64,000 nucleotides of DNA from Candidatus Marinacidobacterales bacterium (lineage in GTDB: Bacteria > Acidobacteriota > Vicinamibacteria > Marinacidobacterales > DATDRI01). The translations under genes and the position numbers were made by a program. The notes below the pieces were generated by a model. That model did no database searches, was not told the origin of the DNA, and was given only the letters and a program-made list of their open reading frames with translations. Location of the stretch: assembly GCA_965219415.1 (NCBI GenBank), contig CBDCNP010000002.1, positions 4,704,001 to 4,768,000 on the forward strand, written 5' to 3'. Below are positions 3,592 through 58,128 of the stretch, piece by piece (positions within the stretch are counted from its first letter, which is position 1; each line of letters begins with the position of its first letter).

Positions 3592-4001
3592 ATTTTTTTG
3601 CGGACAACAACATTTCCCCCGCGATCGCAAACGCTTTAAGTTCATTGAGCCAAAGGGAAGGCGTCGAGGTTGTCCCACTCCGAGAGAAATTCCCACCGAG
3701 CGTCGAAGATCGGGTCTGGCTGGAGTCACTTGGTAAGGAACGAAACTGGGTAATTTTATCTGGAGATATTTCGATCACTCGCAAACCGCACGAGCGCCTT
3801 GCGTGGCAGCAGTGTGGCCTGACAGCGTTCTTCCTTCAGAAGGGTTGGATGGGCATTCGCTTTTGGGATCAATCGTGGAAGCTCGTCAAATGGTGGCCAA
3901 CGATTATAGAAACAGCCAAGCGTTTCGAGACGGGACACTTATTTTCGGTACCAGTCAAAGGAAGTAAGTTAAAGACGATCGCCACGCCAGGCTCAGCATG
4001 A
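3588..4001 (+). CDS. VapC45-like PIN-domain toxin
   Basis: MNFFADNNI, DRVWL, WVILSGD...RKPHE; ATGA overlap with the antitoxin. Confidence 0.85.
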   Translation: MNFFADNNISPAIANALSSLSQREGVEVVPLREKFPPSVEDRVWLESLGKERNWVILSGDISITRKPHERLAWQQCGLTAFFLQKGWMGIRFWDQSWKLVKWWPTIIETAKRFETGHLFSVPVKGSKLKTIATPGSA

Positions 4002-13358: not shown

Positions 13359-14540
13359 TCAGTTCTTATTGCGAAAATGGATTACCGATTCCGACTTTTC
13401 TCCATCGACAAGCCTAAGTTTCATGTTTGGTCCCTCCATGGTCGTTATTGATCCAGGTGGTAGTCCAAAAAGCTCCTCTTGCAGACTGCACGGAAGGGGG
13501 ATTCGCTTGCGGAGGACGTTCGCTATTTTTGTCGGGCCGCCAAGGGCGTCGATTGCTTTAGCGATGAGTTGAGGTTGCTCGGGCGCCAGCTCATCGTCTA
13601 GGGGCTCACGACGCCTGTAACCACGCGCTCCGTAAAGACGCCAAAGTCTAGTATTGTATGCATCGTCGATGAGCCCGAGTTCTCGTAGGCGCATGAGCAT
13701 GGCCCCTATAGAAACACCCCACGTTGGTTTTAACGTCCTTAGGTAATCGAGACTTATCGCATCGACATCATCAAGGAAAGACTCTTCTGGCATTAGAAAT
13801 GCCCCTGCAAATTGAAAAGCCTGGGTTTCCACAAGCTTCAAAGTCTCTGGCTTCCTGAGAAGCGTAGGCGACATATGACGGTGCAGTATCTGATGGCCGA
13901 TCTCATGAGCGGTATCAAAACGTATTCTCGCTGCAACGTTTTTCTCTGTGTTCAAAAGAACAAACGGCCGCGCGGAACACTCAGGCCAGCGAGAGAAAGC
14001 ATCAAGAGCTTCAGACTCCATGAGAAATTGACTAACAACGAATCCCGCCGTCTCAGTGATCCGAACAAGGTTGCCAACCGGCCCATCTTCAATACTCCAG
14101 TGTTCGCGTAGGCTGGTCGCCGCAGACTCGATCATTTCACATGTTATTGACTGAGGGTCATCGGGCAAATCAAATTCTGGGATGTTCACCATGGGAAATT
14201 CGACAAGTTCCTCAAGAAAATCAACAGCCTCTCGCAACCAATCCGCGCGCAACTCGGCTTTGCGTCGGGCGCTCTTCGTCGCCGCGGAGAGCGATCGATA
14301 GAACGTGGGTGCGGTATCAGGTGTAGGCGGGGTACAGGAGAAAAAGCCGATTGGCATAGCCAACCGCAACGAGATTTGCTCAAGCAAATCGGCATCTGGT
14401 GCCAGTTCATCCTTTTCGTACTTAGAGAGCGTGTACCGGCTTATGTTTAGTATCTCAGCAAGTGAGATAATCGTTAGTCCACGCGCCTCGCGGGCTTGAC
14501 GTAAACGTTGTCCCTTGAAGCTGCTTAGGCCCTTGTGCAT
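13359..14540 (-). CDS. XRE-family HTH fused to an ImmA/IrrE metallopeptidase
   Basis: RLRQAREARGLT HTH; RFDTAHEIGH (HExxH); ETQAFQFAGAFLMP; 5' end abuts an IS. Confidence 0.9.
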   Translation of the reverse strand: MHKGLSSFKGQRLRQAREARGLTIISLAEILNISRYTLSKYEKDELAPDADLLEQISLRLAMPIGFFSCTPPTPDTAPTFYRSLSAATKSARRKAELRADWLREAVDFLEELVEFPMVNIPEFDLPDDPQSITCEMIESAATSLREHWSIEDGPVGNLVRITETAGFVVSQFLMESEALDAFSRWPECSARPFVLLNTEKNVAARIRFDTAHEIGHQILHRHMSPTLLRKPETLKLVETQAFQFAGAFLMPEESFLDDVDAISLDYLRTLKPTWGVSIGAMLMRLRELGLIDDAYNTRLWRLYGARGYRRREPLDDELAPEQPQLIAKAIDALGGPTKIANVLRKRIPLPCSLQEELFGLPPGSITTMEGPNMKLRLVDGEKSESVIHFRNKN

Positions 14541-15818
14541 CGTCAAAACTGCTCCGCCCACGAAATCAAGGACTTACGCTCCGCTTGAATTCCGGGCCGA
14601 AGACGGCGAAACTCCGCCGCTATGCTCAACGTTGTTGTCTTCCTCGTCTCACTTGGCGTCCGTGCCATTCGGGCGATGTGTCGGCGCCGCGCCGATCTGG
14701 TGTTGGAGAACGTCGCTTTGCGGCAGCAAGTGACGGCGCTGAAGAAAGAGCGCCCACGCCCACCGCTCGACGACACGGAACGGGCTTTCTGGGTTGCCCT
14801 TCGAGGTTCGTGGCCCGTGTGGGCGAGCCGCCTGCTCATCGTCCACGCGGACACCGTAGCCCGTTGGCATCGCGACCGATTCCGACGGTACTGGGCAAAT
14901 ATCTCGCAGCGCCGCCATCCCGGTCGGCCTCGGATTGATGCCGAGATTCGTCGCCTCGTCCGCACGATGGCGCAAGACGGCTGGGGGGCGCCACGCATCC
15001 ATGCTGAGCTCACCAAGCTCGGTTTCATCATCTCCGAGAGCACGGTGTCGCGATATCTGCCGCGGCATCCCGCGGAGCCCGACCAGCTGAAGCGATGGAT
15101 GGCTTTCTTGCGCAACCATAAAGACGATATCGCCGCCATGGATCTGTTCACCGTGCCCACCGCTTCGCTCCGGATGCTGTACGGCTTCTTCGTCATCGAG
15201 CACGGCCGTCGGCACATCGTTCACTTCAACGCCACGTTCCACCCGACGTCTGCTTGGGTTATTCAGCAACTACGCGAGGCGTTTCCCTACGACACCGCTC
15301 CGAAATATCTTATCTTCGATCGCGACTTCATCTTTAGCGCTGGGGTCATCGAGTTCATCAAAGCAACGGGCACAAAGCCCGTTCGCACTTCGTTTCGCAG
15401 CCCATGGCAAAACGGAACCGCGGAGCGGTGGGTCGGCAGCTGCCGTCGCGAGCTCCTTGAGCGCGTCGTGGTTCTCGGTGCATGTCATCTCATCCGGCTC
15501 GTGCGAGCTTACATCAGCTACTATCATGAGGACCGTTGCCACTTGGGGCTGAACAAGGACACACCGAGCTTGAGAACGGTAACGCACCGACCGTCTCCTA
15601 CGGCGAAAGTAGTCGCACTGCCGCGAGTCGGTGGACTGCACCATCGATACGAGTGGCGAGAGGCAGCCTGAGTCAGCTTGGTCGCTCGCGTTACTCGGCT
15701 GGTCGCCGAGAAGTTCGTCCTCAGCACCTTCCCTCGCGCGCTGACCACGCTCTCCAGCATGTGCTCGAGGGCGGTCCGGGCCTAGAGTCCAGTCCCGGAT
15801 TAATAATGATGATGGACA
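14534..15818 (+). mobile_element. IS481-like element, copy 3 (transposase 14622-15671)
   Basis: Near-identical to copy 1; intact 349-aa ORF. Confidence 0.9.
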
Positions 15819-15847
15819 GGCTTGACTAGAGGAGTCCAGATATGTTG

Positions 15848-17023
15848 CTACGCGGCTACGGGCAGTGGTTCAGGTGCGGAAGAGACCGGGTTGCGCGCCC
15901 CAGTGAGCAGGAAAACCTCGATCCGGAACCACAAAGGAATTGTCGTCGCCAAGAAGATGTCTCGAAAGGTGAGCCGTCGCGTGGTCAGACCGGCTTGCAT
16001 GGCGGGAGTTCGGATCTCACGTCCGAACTTCAGAGCTCCGTGCGGTCGGACGAAGTTGTAATAGCAACGGAGCAACTCCAGGTGCTCATCGAGCCTCTCC
16101 GTCGAGCGAGCGTGGGAAAGCGTTCGTCTCGAAAGGTATGCCGAGCTTCGCCGGATGGTCAGATTTAACCGCTCGATGAACGACGTGTTCAATGTCGAGG
16201 AGTCCTCGGAGTTATTGAGCGTGTCTTCGAATCGCCGCGGCTCCGTGCAGCGCTCTGCGTTCGACCTTGATGATACGATTGTTCCTGCGCGTTTTGAGGA
16301 CCTGGCCGTAGAGACACGCTGGCCCGAAGAAGCGACGGATGACCTTCTGGTAGAATTCGAATCCATCCGTGACGATCAGGGGAAGACGCTCGAAATTCAT
16401 CCGTCTCGAAAGGTCGCGAAACAGAGCGTGAGTGTTCCGGTAGCTTCGCCTTCCCGTCACCGTCGATGGCCAGAGCCGAGACCAGACTTCGATTGTAACG
16501 AAGACCCAACTCGGTGTCTTCTTGTTGCCCGCGAACGTGCGAATCTCGTCGGCTTGAAGCTCTTCGGCAGCGAAGCCAGCGATCCTTCTGTGATTGAATC
16601 GACGACACACTTGGGCTGCCTTCTCGAGCCAGCGGGCGACGGTGTTCCAGGCAATCCCTTTGATCCGGGAAATCGAGGAAATGCTGACACCCTCGACTCT
16701 GAGAGCGATGACCCCATCGAAAGTAGCTCTTCGATGTTGGAGACGGTAGTAGGGCGTGCCTTTCGTCGAGGAGAACGTCTTTCCGCACTCGCCGCACCGG
16801 TATCGACGGCGTTTCCCGGACCTGGTTCGGTAGAATCCGTGGCGAACGATGTTTCCCGGAACTGACTTTGCCCCGCAACGGACATGCGAGATTGAGACAT
16901 CCGCGATTCTTCACTTCGGCTCGGCCCTGACGATGAGAGAACTGTGTCTTCGGAATTCTGGTTCAAACTCTAGCACGCAGACCGGTTAGGGGCTGGCCGC
17001 CAACACTTAATTGCGGAAGCACC
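15848..17023 (-). mobile_element. IS1-family element with doubly frameshifted transposase
   Basis: Zn-finger RRYRCGECGKTF, LQADEIRTF, VTDG, TSFIERLN in different frames; end GGTGCTTCCGC at 17023. Confidence 0.8.
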
Positions 17024-17288
17024 CCAACACCAACTCGAAATGACCTTCGAGCACATGCCACACCGGCTTCCAATACACTCCGGTCGCTTCCATCGCTACA
17101 ATCGTGCAACCGCTCTGCCCCAGCCAATCCGCCATTTCCAGCAATTCGCTCGTGGCTGTACCGAACACACGCGTCTCGCGTACCACCTTCCGCTTCAACG
17201 CAACCCGCACGCAAGCCGTAATCGATTTCTGGTGGACGTCCAATCCGGCGCATCGCTTATGAACCACTCTCATCGCAGCCTCCTTCAC
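17024..17288 (-). pseudogene. IS110 family recombinase, N-terminal fragment
   Basis: CAGLDVHQK and VAMEATGVYWKPVW (DEDD RuvC-like start); truncated by the IS1 end. Confidence 0.9.
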
Positions 17289-17505
17289 GTCGCACCGGCG
17301 TGGAGCCCACGAACTTGTAATCTAATAGACGCGCTCAACAATCCCAGCTGGATAGAAAACGCAATTTGGGGTACGCGCAGGACTCCCAGCCAAACTTGAC
17401 AACGGGCTCAGTCGCACCAACGTTGAGCCGACCTCTGAGCCGGTGCCACCTACAGAGACTACCGCGTTTCATTCATTCGGGGTGGCCGTCAGGCCGTGAA
17501 AAACT
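17289..17505 (-). ncRNA. Putative IS110 bridge RNA / non-coding left end
   Basis: ~215-bp non-coding region directly upstream of the IS110 ORF, where IS110-group elements encode bridge RNA; contains a 10-nt match to the presumed junction. Confidence 0.55.
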
Positions 17506-17533
17506 TGACAGTACCATTAGCAAAGAAGATAAT
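17505..17533 (+). promoter_or_regulatory. Sigma70-type promoter of the TonB receptor gene
   Basis: TTGACA (17505-17510), 17-bp spacer, GATAAT (17528-17533); AGGAGG RBS before ATG 17586. Confidence 0.7.
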
Positions 17534-17585
17534 CCGAAGGTTTCTAGTGCTGACTAACACTGCCCCGAATATAAGGAGGACGAAC

Positions 17586-20537
17586 ATGAGATCGAAAGAT
17601 CATGCGATCTTGGGGACCACTTCTTTAGTCTTATTCCTATATTTGAGTCTTCTGGCGGTTCCAGCGTCCGCGCAGGTTGGAGAAACCAGTATCACCGGAA
17701 CGATCGCTGATGGGACTGGAGCTGTTCTACCGGGGGTGACCGTTACCGCAACCTTCGCGGCGATGAATGTCGTTCGCACCACGGTCTCCGGCGCCGATGG
17801 GAGGTATCGCTTTAACAATCTTCCGGTCGGCAGGTGGAGTTTCGACTTCACGCTGGATGGCTTCGACTCCACCAAGCTCGAGAACTTTGAGCTCAATGTG
17901 GGTCAAAGCCCTACGATCAACATCACGATGCAGGTGGCTGGAGTCGCGGAGACCATTACCGTGCAAGCCGAGACGCCGGTCATCGAGACGACTCGGTCCG
18001 AGCTCTCACACACGATCCAAGACATCCAGGTCGAGGAGCTCCCGCTCCTCGGCAGGAACTGGCTGGACCTCGCGGTTCTGGCAGCGGGCGTGAAGTCCGA
18101 TGGCGGCTCGGCGGACGACGCTCCCACTGCGGGCATCGGTGTGGGTCGCCAGGACAAGGTCCTCATCGATGGATCGGACGTCAACAACCGCTCCACACAC
18201 CGGACGGTCGACATCAAGCTTTCCAGGGAGTCCATCGCCGAGTTCGAGATCAAGACCAACCAGTTCGACGCCCAGCTCGGCCAGAGCGGCACGTCGGTGA
18301 CCCAGGCGGTCACGAAATCGGGAACCGATGCTTTCCACGGAAGCGGCTTTTACTACCGCCGCGACGGTGACTGGGCAGCCGCGGACTTCTTCACCGGGAC
18401 AAAGAACTCAGATTTCTCGAACACGCAGGTTGGCGGCACGATCGGTGGCCCGATTCTGGAGGGAAAAGCCTTCTTCTTCTTCAGCTACGAGTGGCAGGAC
18501 ACGCCGCAAACCTGCTCCTCCAATACAGGAATCGCCGGAATCGACTCGCAGGAGGTCGGCTGTGGGGACAATCGAAATCTCTGGTTCATCCGAGGCGACG
18601 TCACGATCAACGAGAACCACCGCACTGCGTTTCGCTACAACCGAACGACACGCATACAGCCTTTCGCCCGCACCGGCGGGAGCACGCCACCGGGCGGCGC
18701 GCTCGACTACGACTTCTCGTTCAACCGCTTCAACTGGTCCTTGAACTCGGTGTTCGGCGGCAACGTCGTGAACCGCTTCATCTACAACTACCTCGACACC
18801 AACCGCTTGTTCGGCAAGGTGGGCGACGAGATCATCGGCCCCTCGGTCAGCCCGAAGCTCACCACCGCCGGTCCGAGCCATCAGTTTCCGAGCGCCATCC
18901 TGGGTGGGACCCGAGGCGGTGGTTTCGAGAACCCCGACTATTGGTCCATCCGCGATGACGTCTCCACCTTCTTCGAGAAGGGCGGGGATCACAATCTGAA
19001 GTTCGGTGGCTATCTGGAGCGGGCGCAGCTACAGGGCTTCTTCCTCTTCCAGACCAACGGGGTCTACTTCTTCGACCAAGACCCGGCCAACATCCAAGAG
19101 TGTTGCAACTCCGTGAACTGGACGGAGTGGGATACCTCTCAGTTCCCGATCCCGCTTCGATACTCCGCCAACCTGGGTCAGCCCGAGATCTTGACCCCCC
19201 AAAACGTCTACTCGGCCTATGTCCAGGACGATTGGACCATGAACGAAAAGCTCACGCTGAACCTGGGGTTGCGATGGGACTTGGAGACCGGCTCTATGTT
19301 CAATGACGAGCCGGACCTCCTACTCCAAGAGCAGTTCGGTAACGACTTGAACAACTTCCAGCCGCGGCTCGGCGTCGCCTTCGACACCGGAGGGAACGGA
19401 AAAACGGTCGTTCGAGGCGGGCTCGGGAGGTTCCACTCACAGGCCTTCTTGAACATTGCGCTCTTCGTCCAGCGCTCCAATCGACCTCAAGAGATCAACG
19501 TCACCGTCACCAACGATGACATGGACCCCAGGTTCTACGAAGATCCTCTAGGCGGGCGAGGGTTCGAAGACTTCGCGGGCCAGATCGGATCGATTCCGTT
19601 CGACGTTTCTATTTTTGCCCCCGGCTCGGTGATCCCGAGCCTCTGGTCGTTCACCGGTGGCGTGGCGCACCAGATTACGCCTTCGATGGCTCTCGAGGTC
19701 GACTACATCCACCAGAGGACCGACGATCAGTACCGCTCGGTGGATACCAACCTCTTCCCGAATGCCAATGGCACCGGGAACCTCCCAGTCAACGACGGGT
19801 TCTTTCCCGAGCTCGGCGGTCACGTGACCGGTGTCGGGCGCCCGGACCCGCGCTGGGCGGTCGTCCGGAGCTTCGTGAACGAGGGCACCGCCCGCTACAA
19901 CGCCCTTTCGGTGTCTCTCCAGAAGCGATTCCAGAACAACTACTCCCTCGGCTTTACCTATCTGCTATCGAAGAACCAAGACAACTTCAACGATGTCTTC
20001 GACTATCCCAGTAATATGTTCGACCTCGCCGACGAGTACGGCACTTCGCTCCACGATCAGAGACACCGCATGACGGCGAACTGGGTGTGGGTATTGCCGT
20101 ACGAGTTCGTCTTCAGCGGCCTAATGTACACCGCGTCGGGAATCGCGAGGCCGACGGTGGCCAATGGACAGGATCTCTTCGGTATCGCTCCCGAGCAGCG
20201 CGGTCTGAGCCCGCGACCAACCTGTGGACTCGATCCGCAGTTCGACGGCGCGTGCAGTGTCCTGGGGATCGCCGATGGGACGCGCGTGCCTCGAAATGCG
20301 TTTCGTAGCGACAGCGTCTTCCGACTCGACGTCCGCCTCGGCTGGCGTGGTTACATCTCCGAAGGCGTCTTCGTCGAGCCGACCCTTGAGGTCTTCAACC
20401 TGTTCAACCGGCAAAACAACGACCCCCGCCGCTTCAACACGAACCTGGCGAGCGGCGGCTTTAGCGCACCTGGTCGATCGACCAACCTGCCCTACTTGCC
20501 GCGTACGCTTCAACTCGGTGTAATCCTGCGTTTCTAG
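17586..20537 (+). CDS. TonB-dependent receptor (Oar-like, carboxypeptidase-regulatory N-domain)
   Basis: Signal peptide, ITGTIADGTGAVLPGVTV, LPLLGRNW, TKSGT, YVQDDW, terminal Phe. Confidence 0.92.
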   Translation: MRSKDHAILGTTSLVLFLYLSLLAVPASAQVGETSITGTIADGTGAVLPGVTVTATFAAMNVVRTTVSGADGRYRFNNLPVGRWSFDFTLDGFDSTKLENFELNVGQSPTINITMQVAGVAETITVQAETPVIETTRSELSHTIQDIQVEELPLLGRNWLDLAVLAAGVKSDGGSADDAPTAGIGVGRQDKVLIDGSDVNNRSTHRTVDIKLSRESIAEFEIKTNQFDAQLGQSGTSVTQAVTKSGTDAFHGSGFYYRRDGDWAAADFFTGTKNSDFSNTQVGGTIGGPILEGKAFFFFSYEWQDTPQTCSSNTGIAGIDSQEVGCGDNRNLWFIRGDVTINENHRTAFRYNRTTRIQPFARTGGSTPPGGALDYDFSFNRFNWSLNSVFGGNVVNRFIYNYLDTNRLFGKVGDEIIGPSVSPKLTTAGPSHQFPSAILGGTRGGGFENPDYWSIRDDVSTFFEKGGDHNLKFGGYLERAQLQGFFLFQTNGVYFFDQDPANIQECCNSVNWTEWDTSQFPIPLRYSANLGQPEILTPQNVYSAYVQDDWTMNEKLTLNLGLRWDLETGSMFNDEPDLLLQEQFGNDLNNFQPRLGVAFDTGGNGKTVVRGGLGRFHSQAFLNIALFVQRSNRPQEINVTVTNDDMDPRFYEDPLGGRGFEDFAGQIGSIPFDVSIFAPGSVIPSLWSFTGGVAHQITPSMALEVDYIHQRTDDQYRSVDTNLFPNANGTGNLPVNDGFFPELGGHVTGVGRPDPRWAVVRSFVNEGTARYNALSVSLQKRFQNNYSLGFTYLLSKNQDNFNDVFDYPSNMFDLADEYGTSLHDQRHRMTANWVWVLPYEFVFSGLMYTASGIARPTVANGQDLFGIAPEQRGLSPRPTCGLDPQFDGACSVLGIADGTRVPRNAFRSDSVFRLDVRLGWRGYISEGVFVEPTLEVFNLFNRQNNDPRRFNTNLASGGFSAPGRSTNLPYLPRTLQLGVILRF

Positions 20538-20992: not shown

Positions 20993-22338
20993 TGTGCATC
21001 ATCAATATCCGTCCGCTCCTGAAATCAAGGATTTACGCACCGTTCACGCCTCGGCCAACGAGCGCATCTCCCGCTTGAGATCCCGGTCTTGAGACGGCAA
21101 ACTCTGCCGCCATGCTCCGTGTCCTCATCTTTCTCGTCTCACTCGGCGCCCGTGCGATCCGGGCGATGTGTCGGTGCCGAGCCGACCTCGTGATTGAAAA
21201 CCTGGCCCTGCGGCAGCAAGTTACGGCGTTGAAGAAGGAGCGCCCCCGGCCACCGCTCGAGGACACGGACCGAGCATTCTGGGTTGCGCTCCGAAGCTCG
21301 TGGCCAGCGTGGGCGAGCCGGCTCGTTATCGTGAACGCCGACACGGTCGCCCGGTGGAATCGAGATCGGTTCCGCCGATACTGGGCTCGGATCTCCCGTC
21401 CGCGCTATCCAGGTCGACCTCGGATTGATGCCGAGATTCGTCGTCTCGTCCGCACGATGGCCCAAGACGGCTGGGGTGCACCTCGTATCCACGCTGAGCT
21501 GACGAAGCTCGGATTCGTTGTCAGCGAGATGACGGTGTCGCGATACATGCCGCGCCGCCGAGCCGAACCCGACGAAGTGAAGCGATGGATTGCGTTCTTG
21601 CGGAACCACAAGGACGACATCGCCGCGATGGATCTGTTCGCCGTACCGACGGCGTCGCTACGGCTGCTGTACGGCTTCTTCGTCATCGAGCACGGCCGTC
21701 GCCATATCTCGCACTTCAACGCGACGTACAACCCCACGTCAGCGTGGGTGATTCAACAACTGCGCGAGGCGTTCCCATACGACACGGCACCACGATACTT
21801 GGTCTTTGACCGCGACGCGATTTTCAGCCCTGCAGTGGTGGAGTTCATCAGGGCCATGGGCACAAAGCCTGTTCGCATTTCTTATCGCAGCCCTTGGCAA
21901 AACGGTACCGCCGAACGCTGGATCGGAAACTGCCGCCGCGAGATGTTAGAGCGTGTAGTTGTCCTCAGTGAGCGGCATCTCGTCCGGCTCATGCGCTTGT
22001 ACATCAGCTACTACCACGAGGACCGTTGCCACTTAGGTCTCGACAAAGACACCCCGAACTCAAGACCCGTCACGCCCCGACCATCACCGACCGCAAAAGT
22101 CGTCGCGTTGCCGCGAGTGGGTGGGCTCCACCACCGCTACGAATGGCGCGACGCCGCCTGAGCCAGTTTAGTCGCTGCGCGTCGATTGCTGGGGTCCCTC
22201 GCGATTGTGTTGTCCAGCTCCGCGACCCATTGATCGCGTGATCTCGGCAAGTGCCCCCGCGCGCCGACCCGGGTTTCTTCGTTCGTCGTAGGGCCACCAG
22301 CGGTACCATTCCCGCTGGATCAATAATGATGAAGGACA
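20993..22338 (+). mobile_element. IS481-like element, diverged copy 4 (transposase 21112-22161)
   Basis: TGTGCATCATCA...TGATGAAGGACA ends; 349-aa paralogue. Confidence 0.88.
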
Positions 22339-56736: not shown

Positions 56737-56900
56737 CGCGCACCATCAGCTCTTCGATGTCGGCGTCGACCTGCGGTCGCCCTGGATACTGACGGTTCTT
56801 GGAGCTATCGAACTTCTTCGCGACAAGCCTCCGGTGCCAACCTAGGATCGTGTCGGGGTTCACGATACTCGCGACCTCATCAAGGGCTTGCTTACCCAGC
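56737..56900 (-). pseudogene. rve-type transposase fragment
   Basis: IVNPDTILGWHRRLVAKKFD...GRP; a related piece lies at about 9320-9390. Confidence 0.6.
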
Positions 56901-56913
56901 GATTACTTCAAGC

Positions 56914-57719
56914 GGTATTGTCAAATTGAGCTGGTGACTGACAGAATGGTCCAATGAAGACCGATGCGCCAAGCTACCACGGCTATCGATTTCCACCGGA
57001 AATCATCAGCCACGCCGTCTGGCTCTACCACCGATTCTGCGTGAGCTTTCGAAACGTCGAAGAGTTGCTCGCTCAGCGAGGCATCACGGTTTCTTACGAA
57101 GCGGTCCGACTGTGGTGCATTAAGTTCGGGCCGGAATACGCTCGGCGACTGAAGCGTCGGCAGGGTCGTCTCGGTGACACATGGCACCTGGACGAGGTCT
57201 TCATAAAGATACAAGGTGAACGCCAATACCTCTGGCGCGCGGTAGACCAAGATGGTGATGTAATCGATATCCTCGTCCAGCCTCGCCGTGATCAGAAAGC
57301 CGCCAAACGATTCTTCCGCAAGCTGTTGAAGGGGCAAGGCCGTCCGCCCTGGCAGCTGGTCACCGACAAACTGAGAAGCTACAGCGCCGCTCACCGCGAG
57401 GTCATGCCGTCCGTCGTCCACGACACTGACCAGTACAGAAACAACCTAGCCGAAGTCTCGCACGAACCGACGCGACAACGGGAACGACAGATGCGGAAGT
57501 TTAAAGCTCCTGGGCAGGCGCAACGATTCTTGACCGTGCATGGACTCGTGCAAAATCTCTTTCGCGTCGGACGGCATTTGTTGCAAGCGCATCATCATCG
57601 GGAGCTACGAGACCGCGCTTTCATCGTCTGGCAGGAGGTAACCTGTGCCGTCCGATGAGAGCAAAGGAAGTCAGCTCGACGCGATAGGTTCGCTCGCTCA
57701 ACGTCAACTTGACAATACC
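56914..57719 (+). mobile_element. IS6-family element (transposase 56954-57658)
   Basis: IRs GGTATTGTCAAATTGA / TCAACTTGACAATACC; WHLDEVF, YLWRAVD, TDK, NNLAE. Confidence 0.93.
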
Positions 57720-58128
57720 GCGATGAGCGCTGTGATTCTCGATTGCCTCATAGACGCCGCCGGCGGGAACCGACGTCGAAGTGTTCACGGCGATTGCTTG
57801 CGGGTCACGCGCCTGTACGAACTGCCGGAGATCCGTGCTTGCACCGAAGAAATCATAGATTTCGCCGTCACCCTCGCGAATCCCTTCGTTGCGTCCTCCG
57901 AGAACCGCCCGCTCGATCCTCTCGCTCCCGCGATCGGTAAAGATGAAATAGGAGGTAGTACCGCGCAAGTCCAACGGCGTCCCCAAATCGAGCGCTAGAG
58001 GATCTGGGTTGCCGTCGCGGATGACGTGCATCCACATATCGACGCCGTTGTCACGCATTGCGCCGGGCAAGACGAGATCGAATTTCTCTCGTTGAATCAG
58101 TGTAAGTAGATCAGCCCGACTGCGAGCC
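57720..58128 (-). pseudogene. M24/Xaa-Pro peptidase N-terminal fragment
   Basis: REKFDLVLPGAMRDNGVDMWMHVIR...DPL; cut at both ends by mobile DNA. Confidence 0.55.

Follow-up and report, generated by a model that had tools for sequence, protein, structure and literature searches.

Within the window analysed here (the whole 64-kb stretch of DNA, part of an 8.05-Mb genome in three contigs designated G000), the minus strand carries at 17024-17503 a remnant of an IS110-family element, 1,482 bp long when complete, that retains the left end, the gene for the bridge RNA and the recombinase reading frame as far as codon 83. The remnant is 99% identical over 492 nt to the copies at C3:4303133-4304660 and C3:4290594-4292121, which are the only full-length copies in the genome among 21 matches to the left end. 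Specifically, positions 17274-17503 form the 5' non-coding end of the element (approximately 231 nt), while the adjoining stretch at 17010-17273, also on the minus strand, encodes an N-terminal DEDD recombinase fragment of 88 aa to the stop (Pfam PF01548 DEDD_Tnp_IS110, E 6e-9), in agreement with an earlier interpretation made from the sequence alone (hereafter the sequence-only reading), which had placed an IS110 upstream non-coding region here. That reading had also remarked that the right end is missing, and the cause is an unrelated multi-copy IS of 1,183 bp (15843-17023, no strand assigned) that interrupts the element at 17024, such that the right junction of the window copy, together with the IS6-type body it had entered, is lost. 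The interrupting IS is present in dozens of copies (192 blastn matches including partial ones; 32 of the 40 matches listed span approximately 15843-17023) and shows a weak match to rve_3. The decamer AAACTTGACA, reported by the sequence-only reading in the non-coding part of the element and again at its boundary, has exactly two occurrences in the window, at plus-strand positions 17392-17401 and 17501-17510. Beyond the boundary a promoter-like arrangement, TTGACA-17 nt-GATAAT (17505-17533, plus strand), precedes a gene for a TonB-dependent receptor-like outer-membrane protein (17577-20537, plus strand; OMP_b-brl_4, 1.5e-78; CarboxypepD_reg, 1e-19).

The surroundings are crowded with other repeats, located at 15843-17023, 14622-15671, 21112-22161 and 56739-56899, and include a pair of rve_3 integrase genes that each encode 349 aa, a 161-bp repeat present at least 14 times, and a 46-bp repeat (57720-57765) found in more than 35 identical copies. 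Additionally, the minus strand at 13359-14561 encodes a 400-aa protein with HTH_3 and IrrE/ImmA-type Peptidase_M78 domains, a typical mobile-element regulator.

The full-length copies encode a 412-aa protein in which Pfam detects the DEDD (RuvC-like) N-terminal domain (PF01548, E 1.1e-26) as well as the C-terminal Tnp domain with its serine (PF02371, E 1e-23), as the IS110 family requires, and homology to the IS621 transposase (PDB 8wt6) is found at E 7e-10. In the alignment with that protein, S298 of the motif PRLHESAG falls on the serine of PRRYESGS, and the acidic residues D12, E62, D98 and D101, whose equivalence to those of IS621 was set by motif context and alignment, are all present in the copy at C3:4290643-4291878. 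The second full-length recombinase (C3:4303376-4304611) differs from the first at 14 residues and has its catalytic Glu62 replaced by lysine (MKATG as against MEATG), suggesting that this copy is probably inactive. The fragment in the window retains E62 and departs from the full copies after residue 83.

The boundaries of the element were obtained by comparing empty with occupied sites. Five intact 120-bp MITEs in the genome are empty and read GGTAY TGTCA AGTT GAGGCATTC...CCTCAACTTGACARTACC; one further copy, the sixth, holds the element, with a left junction of ..GGTAC TGTCA AGTT TTCCACGG.. and a right junction of ..GTTTCTTATT AGTT GAGGCATTC.., in which CTTATT stands before AGTT. This comparison sets the length of the element proper at 1,482 bp. 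In general form, the empty site is GGTACTGTCA-AGTT-GAGG, the occupied left junction ..TGTCA-AGTT-TTYCACGG, and the occupied right junction ..CTTATT-AGTT-GAGG. The ends of the element are not inverted repeats, and AGTT alone is common to element and target; in the window this overlap, which holds the crossover, occupies 17502-17505 on the minus strand, and the core within it would be AG (CT on the plus strand, 17504-17505). The boundary presumed by the sequence-only reading was thus right to within 2 nt, the crossover falling inside the decamer, and TGACA (17506-17510) and GTACC (17511-17515) lie on the target side of the junction. Homology between copies extends in BLAST comparisons to 17515, for which reason TGTCAAG first looked like part of the element, and this extent fits a unit that begins at GGTAC (17515), with TGTCAAG as its own end and the internal copy of the sequence as a donor-binding guide. 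Such a unit is, however, ruled out by the empty sites, given that GGTAYTGTCAAGTT runs directly into GAGG or GACG at at least 26 IS110-free sites, intact MITEs and IS6 copies among them; moreover, the donor guide is a different window, one that matches the right end. We accordingly regard a unit beginning at GGTAC as very improbable, and the boundary at AGTT is used throughout what follows.

When the junctions of other copies were inspected for TTGACA, all 20 left junctions in the genome were found to read TGTCAAG, in one orientation relative to the repeat tip. At 18 of the 20 the flank is a GG-tipped repeat end, the GGTACTGTCA tip that also heads IS6 copies and MITEs, the exceptions being GATAC and ATTGC. 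The genome contains 85 TGTCAAGTT sites, consisting of these 20 occupied left junctions, 26 empty sites with a GGYRY tip, 10 internal guides and 29 others. On the opposite side, the right flanks of the two full copies and four mini-elements start with TTGAG (four), TTGAC (one) or TTAAG (one), and in five of the six cases the flank runs on into the repeat. Similarly, in a 96%-identical relative represented by a metagenome-assembled genome, TGTCAAG is found at the left junction of all seven full copies, and the right flanks of two full copies enter an IS6 end or a MITE.

Several derivatives of the element accompany the full-length copies. Mini-elements of approximately 155-160 bp, composed of the left end's first 68 nt plus the final 80 nt or so, including the C-terminal codons of the recombinase, are located at C3:4602938-4603093, 4618555-4618709, 3521492-3521647 and 4370100-4370254 of G000 and, in the locus L052 of a relative, at 3753-3893. 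Their junctions are proper ones (TGTCAAG-TT...TTATTAG-TT), and they contain neither guide loop, such that their movement would need RNA and enzyme supplied in trans. These internal-deletion products also account for a 160-bp repeat with the IS110 element inside it (80 bp on the left and 80 bp on the right), a candidate that was rejected on finding that the supposed right part is recombinase C-terminal coding sequence. At L052:3740-3900 and at the right junctions of L103, L113, L123, L124 and L130, ends of one family abut head to tail, a left end beginning immediately after a right end (..TAG TT); each case reflects either tandem insertion into a left junction that was already occupied or the fossil of a circle junction. 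Additionally, left-end stubs at C3:2514215-2514250, 4338635-4338666, 4462867-4462900 and 4500940-4500980 retain the first 25-40 nt after TGTCAAGTT before passing into unrelated DNA; in two of them that DNA is one shared repeat of another kind (TCCTGTGCCAAAACTCGG..), suggesting that a different IS interrupts the left end at a constant position. Lastly, at approximately 40 nt from the junction the left end carries a conserved motif, ATGAAAC (17466-17474 in the window, minus strand), whose inverted complement corresponds to GTTTC, a sequence that every relative has conserved at 7 nt from its right end, and the two may constitute a short subterminal inverted repeat or allow RNA pairing across a circle junction.

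The element inserts into the terminal inverted repeats, 17 bp long (GGTAYTGTCAAGTTGA), that bound the resident IS6-family elements and 120-bp MITEs. An intact and unoccupied representative, an IS6-family IS of 806 bp, is present in the window itself (56914-57719, plus strand; 234-aa transposase; Pfam PF13610 DDE_Tnp_IS240, E 1.1e-37) and is one of seven copies in the genome. Its ends are GGTATTGTCAAATTGAG and GGTATTGTCAAGTTGAC, and the repeat at both ends takes the form GGTATTGTCAA(A/G)TTGA, with the GG tip and cTGTt motif present. The left repeat has CAAATT where the right has CAAGTT, and consequently only the right repeat matches the IS110 guide perfectly. The mini-element at C3:3521492-3521647 lies inside the left repeat of an IS6 copy. 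None of the seven copies is flanked by an 8-bp target duplication, the absence of which is common where such elements move by cointegrates and recombination. Passages of PMC7986276 give the IS6 family a GG tip, cTGTt and caaa motifs, repeats of 15-20 bp and a size of approximately 800 bp. At the IS110 junction in the window, all that is left of an IS6-type terminal inverted repeat is its outer 10 bp (GGTACTGTCA, 17506-17515, minus strand), the target flank.

The sequence-only reading had proposed that the bridge RNA is set for a consensus -35 hexamer and that the element, in search of a safe harbour, inserts immediately upstream of sigma-70 promoters. The guide does hold the complement of TTGACA, the hexamer survives insertion, as that reading had anticipated, with TGACA and the core T on the target side, and the window copy does have GATAAT 17 bp downstream. 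Across the genome this arrangement is exceptional, however. Matches to a -10 box were scored as at least 4 of 6 positions, with A2 and T6 required and a spacing of 16-18 bp, against a background of 20,000 random positions; by this measure only 5 of 87 TTGACARYRCC sites score (background 1.8%), and among the 18 occupied junctions that match the pattern the window copy alone scores (GATAAT, 5/6), the other 17 scoring zero. One further row, labelled 'IS110' by the script, is a MITE, scores zero, and stands outside the 18. The missing -10 boxes at 17 of 18 junctions indicate that the element does not home to promoters. The continuation of 18 of 20 left flanks as an IS6-type tip, the entry of right flanks into the repeat in five of six cases, and a specified sequence that exceeds the hexamer (approximately CAAC|TTGACA, with GAG on the other side) likewise speak against promoter seeking, which we judge very improbable. 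The safe-harbour proposal accordingly gives way to IS6 and MITE repeats as the target.

The link between the internal copy of the decamer and the junction was examined in relatives of the element drawn from two sources. The first was a recombinase search of 401 genomes of the phylum, 31 of which gave a match at E <=1e-40 (G049 was left out), and the second a collection of species-representative genomes that supplied 80 loci at 59-96% identity. The frame A[G/A]CCCG-N-(9 nt), located 100-175 nt before the start codon, was present in 91 of 105 loci, and the other 14 were dropped. Among the 35 distinct guide 9-mers so obtained, 31 have AG at positions 6-7; the four variants without it were excluded as likely mis-hits. 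When the first seven bases of each guide were sought upstream, with G-to-A permitted at position 7, 24 of the 31 variants showed them again at a distance of 100-125 nt, mostly exactly 109 nt, as compared with 4 of 930 cross pairings with the upstream regions of other families. Most of the seven non-recurring variants differ from their junction by a single base. Furthermore, guide positions 8-9 match the first two bases of the element, with TT, CT, TC, CC, AA and AT covarying. Brevity is the one feature that would allow the pair of decamers in the window to be a chance repeat, the match being only 10 nt long. The expectation is, however, 0.07 copies per window, none of 100 shuffles produced two or more copies, and the same relation of guide to junction holds in the 24 of 31 variants of differing sequence, leaving chance with next to no probability. 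The guide-junction relation is therefore taken as real in what follows, and the covariation, together with the junction mapping and the unpaired position described below, upholds the proposal that the internal UGUCAAG is the target guide.

An alignment of 30 non-redundant left ends yielded a consensus structure for the RNA, the structured core of which spans 17292-17446 on the minus strand of the window. The structure consists of six helices and 29 pairs, with 91.6% of alignment cells paired and compensatory changes on both sides at 21 of the 29 pairs. None of 500 shuffles reached any of these measures, and controls in which the structure was slid along the alignment paired at no more than 43% of cells; shuffles overstate significance for related sequences, and the slid controls and the explicit swaps in helix P2, in which GGUC/GACC is replaced by GAUC/GAUC, GACC/GGUC or AGUC/GACU, are thus the stronger evidence. 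P1 forms an outer stem, P2 closes the target loop, and P3 is a hairpin within it; P4, with its one-pair extension P5, closes the donor loop, which contains the hairpin P6, five pairs of which were added by hand. Folded as a single sequence, 17286-17452 was no better than its shuffles (z -0.66), and its minimum-energy fold agrees with the comparative structure in the outer stem only. Scanning 16800-17800 against Rfam with an E limit of 10 returned no bridge-RNA family and only a chance snoRNA match.

Three windows of the consensus structure are unpaired and variable. Window var2, UGUCAAG+UU (17393-17401, minus strand), lies in the target loop between P3 and P2', so that the guide is located in a loop and covaries with the junction, as opposed to residing in an invariant stem. 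Window var1, GCUCAACG (17421-17428, minus strand), is situated between P2 and P3, and window var3, CUAUUAG+AU (17320-17328, minus strand), follows the donor hairpin. A conserved G stands two bases, and a conserved A seven bases, ahead of the start of var2 and likewise of var3, and both windows carry AG at positions 6-7. Right ends across the family have the form GTTTC-NNNNN-AG, and var3 matches them exactly in 18 of 28 variants and with at most one mismatch in 27 of 28. The var1 window is antisense to the right flank, over 6 nt in a full copy of this element and over 9 of 9 nt in locus L064; family-wide its signal is weak, a run of at least 5 nt occurring in 12 of 68 own junctions versus 82 of 2,108 cross pairings. 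Two copies in the genome, as well as all seven in the 96%-identical relative, have CUUAAC in place of CUCAAC in var1, and one mini-element has a TTAAG right flank; the pair constitutes a small natural reprogramming. As to the donor loop's 5' guide, the only candidate is a short match of AAAUU type to the core plus TTT. RNA contigs of run X20 fit other IS110 or mini-element copies, and a scan for sigma-70 consensus promoters, the only type covered, across the natural right-end/left-end tandem junction at L052 found none.

Taken together, these data make it highly probable that the guide of an IS110-family bridge RNA, matched to the terminal repeats of IS6-family elements and MITEs, directs insertion of the element. 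The repeat itself, the boundaries, the RNA structure, the covariation of guide with junction and the identity of the target are observed directly, while RNA-guided recombination, presumably along the lines of IS621, is inferred, as are the CT core and strand polarity. The minus-strand remnant represents the left 480 bp of the 1,482-bp element, with an IS621-like bridge RNA encoded by its 5' non-coding end. In this RNA an outer stem encloses a target-binding and a donor-binding loop, and each loop is predicted to have a hairpin flanked by a short guide on its 5' side and a 9-nt guide window on its 3' side. In the target loop, the 3' window UGUCAAG+UU (17401-17393) would pair with the flank CTTGACA, including the CT core, its last two bases matching the element's own start in the manner of 'handshake' bases formed after strand exchange, and the 5' window GCUCAAC matches the other flank. 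In the donor loop, the 3' window CUAUUAG matches the right end of the element. The sequence so specified, ..TGTCA|AG|TTGAG.., is that of the terminal inverted repeat of the resident IS6-family IS and 120-bp MITEs, from which it follows that the element inserts 10-14 bp inside such repeats, always in one orientation, leaving on neighbouring DNA a repeat tip with an outward TTGACA.

Comparison with IS621 reveals several similarities. Both systems have a DEDD domain and a C-terminal serine domain in the recombinase, an RNA encoded upstream of the gene, two internal loops with two guides each around a hairpin, a conserved A and G before the windows, and a core that pairs with positions 6-7 of the 3' window, two handshake bases coming next. 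As set out in passages of PMC11208158, the IS621 loop runs in the order stem, left guide, hairpin, right guide, with a flipped-out A and a syn G before each guide; its right target guide is G77-G80, extendable by 74-76 before it and followed by handshake bases 81-82; and G80 and its neighbour pair with the CT core. By analogy, the placement of var2 and var3 is that of the IS621 right guide, and the target guide, which the sequence-only reading had assigned to the left-guide position of IS621, is instead found in the 3' window of its loop.

Despite these similarities, differences from IS621 are evident. Firstly, the recombinase has 412 aa as compared with about 326, the similarity amounting to E 7e-10, and an outer stem surrounds both loops of an RNA that has no Rfam match. 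Secondly, the long guide (7 nt + 2) is found in the 3' window and matches the flank adjoining the left end. The methods of PMC11208160 place the right end 5' of the CT core, with the RNA-encoding left end following it. The IS621 right guides are antisense to the flank by the right end and to the left end; here, in contrast, var2 is sense to the flank by the left end and var3 is sense to the element's right end. The match of the long guide to the left-end flank is what would place the core CT on the strand antisense to the genes. The simplest reading would be that the geometry of RNA, DNA and protein is conserved with the CT core antisense to the genes, giving AAA|CT|TGACA on the plus strand.

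The element is one aimed at the ends of another transposon, and IS1383, IS4321/IS5075 and ISEc21 are precedents for targets within other transposons. Titles of works cited in PMC11208160 and PMC11187229 have IS1383 targeting IS1384 inverted repeats and IS4321/IS5075 targeting the terminal repeats of the Tn21 family. These are likewise IS110/IS1111-family elements directed at another transposon's terminal inverted repeat, whereas the targets here are IS6 elements and MITEs and the host belongs to another phylum; additionally, IS4321/IS5075 belong to the IS1111 group, in which the RNA is encoded downstream, while here it is encoded upstream. The seekRNA of ISEc21 targets, in passages of PMC11187229, a conserved sequence in IS3-family transposase genes, and ISEc21 resembles the present element in its IS110 type, its upstream non-coding region, a target within other IS, and natural reprogramming among relatives. 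According to the same passages of PMC11187229, IS1111-type seekRNAs and ISEc21 have their top- and bottom-strand matches in opposite order: in ISEc21 the bottom-strand match comes before the top-strand match, and here the top-strand complement comes first. The guide order is therefore the IS1111-type one, though the RNA is upstream of the recombinase. Transposases of 395-455 aa are assigned in that source to the IS110-proper subgroup, into which the 412-aa recombinase fits.

A separate question is whether the repeat tip left behind acts as part of a promoter. The sequence-only reading had pointed to TTGACA-17-GATAAT upstream of the TonB receptor gene, and the promoter scan agrees, with 11 of 12 consensus positions matched: the -35 hexamer (17505-17510) consists of the core T and the repeat tip, and the -10 hexamer (17528-17533) is unique flank. 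Passages of PMC7986276 present hybrid promoters, in which the repeat supplies the -35 and the flank the -10, as a general property of the IS6 family, and the window shares with these the outward -35 inside a terminal repeat, the flank -10, the GG tip and the cTGTt motif. The difference is that only the outer 10-12 bp of the repeat are left here, as the IS110 element split it. Judged by its sequence, the pair could be a working hybrid promoter of the receptor gene in the IS6 style, being close to the consensus at 17-bp spacing, with a good ribosome-binding site and an ATG following approximately 37 nt downstream; a -10 box matching at 5 of 6 positions is expected about 0.08 times by chance among some 58 repeat ends. 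Against this, it is a single case among those ends, -10 boxes are not enriched at them, and the scan used the sigma-70 consensus, with the promoter rules of this phylum lying outside it. The upstream region of the receptor gene is not conserved in orthologues, homology starting only at 17596, and relatives are thus uninformative on the promoter. Contigs from DNA runs X1 and X2 bridge 17485-17952 exactly, and RNA contigs of X22 fit a receptor gene that is 93% alike. The hybrid promoter is therefore suggestive as a single case, and we hold it as a tentative possibility with somewhat the lesser share of the probability.

In its broader context, the element belongs to a clade with recombinases of approximately 400-412 aa that is found in Acidobacteriota, Planctomycetota, Gemmatimonadota and other metagenome genomes. 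The RNA of this clade would lie upstream, as in IS621 and ISEc21, while its guide order and strand polarity would be those of IS1111-type seekRNAs, with a long 7+2-nt guide in the right-guide position and a CT core antisense to the genes. With regard to the host, the data describe an IS110-type element specialised on IS6-family and MITE ends in an IS-rich acidobacterial genome, and the TTGACA held in its guide is a transposon-end sequence as opposed to a promoter-homing strategy. The system provides a clean natural example of bridge-RNA programming, in which approximately 31 guide variants can be compared with their own junctions, and empty and occupied sites are found in one genome. For the engineering of bridge recombinases, the clade is a source of orthologues whose long guide occupies the right-guide position and whose strand layout is seemingly different. 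More speculatively, and with a probability we would set clearly on the low side, the clade may constitute a third bridge-RNA layout and the element in this genome a parasite of transposons, one that cuts off the tip of the repeat and keeps its outward -35 for neighbouring genes.
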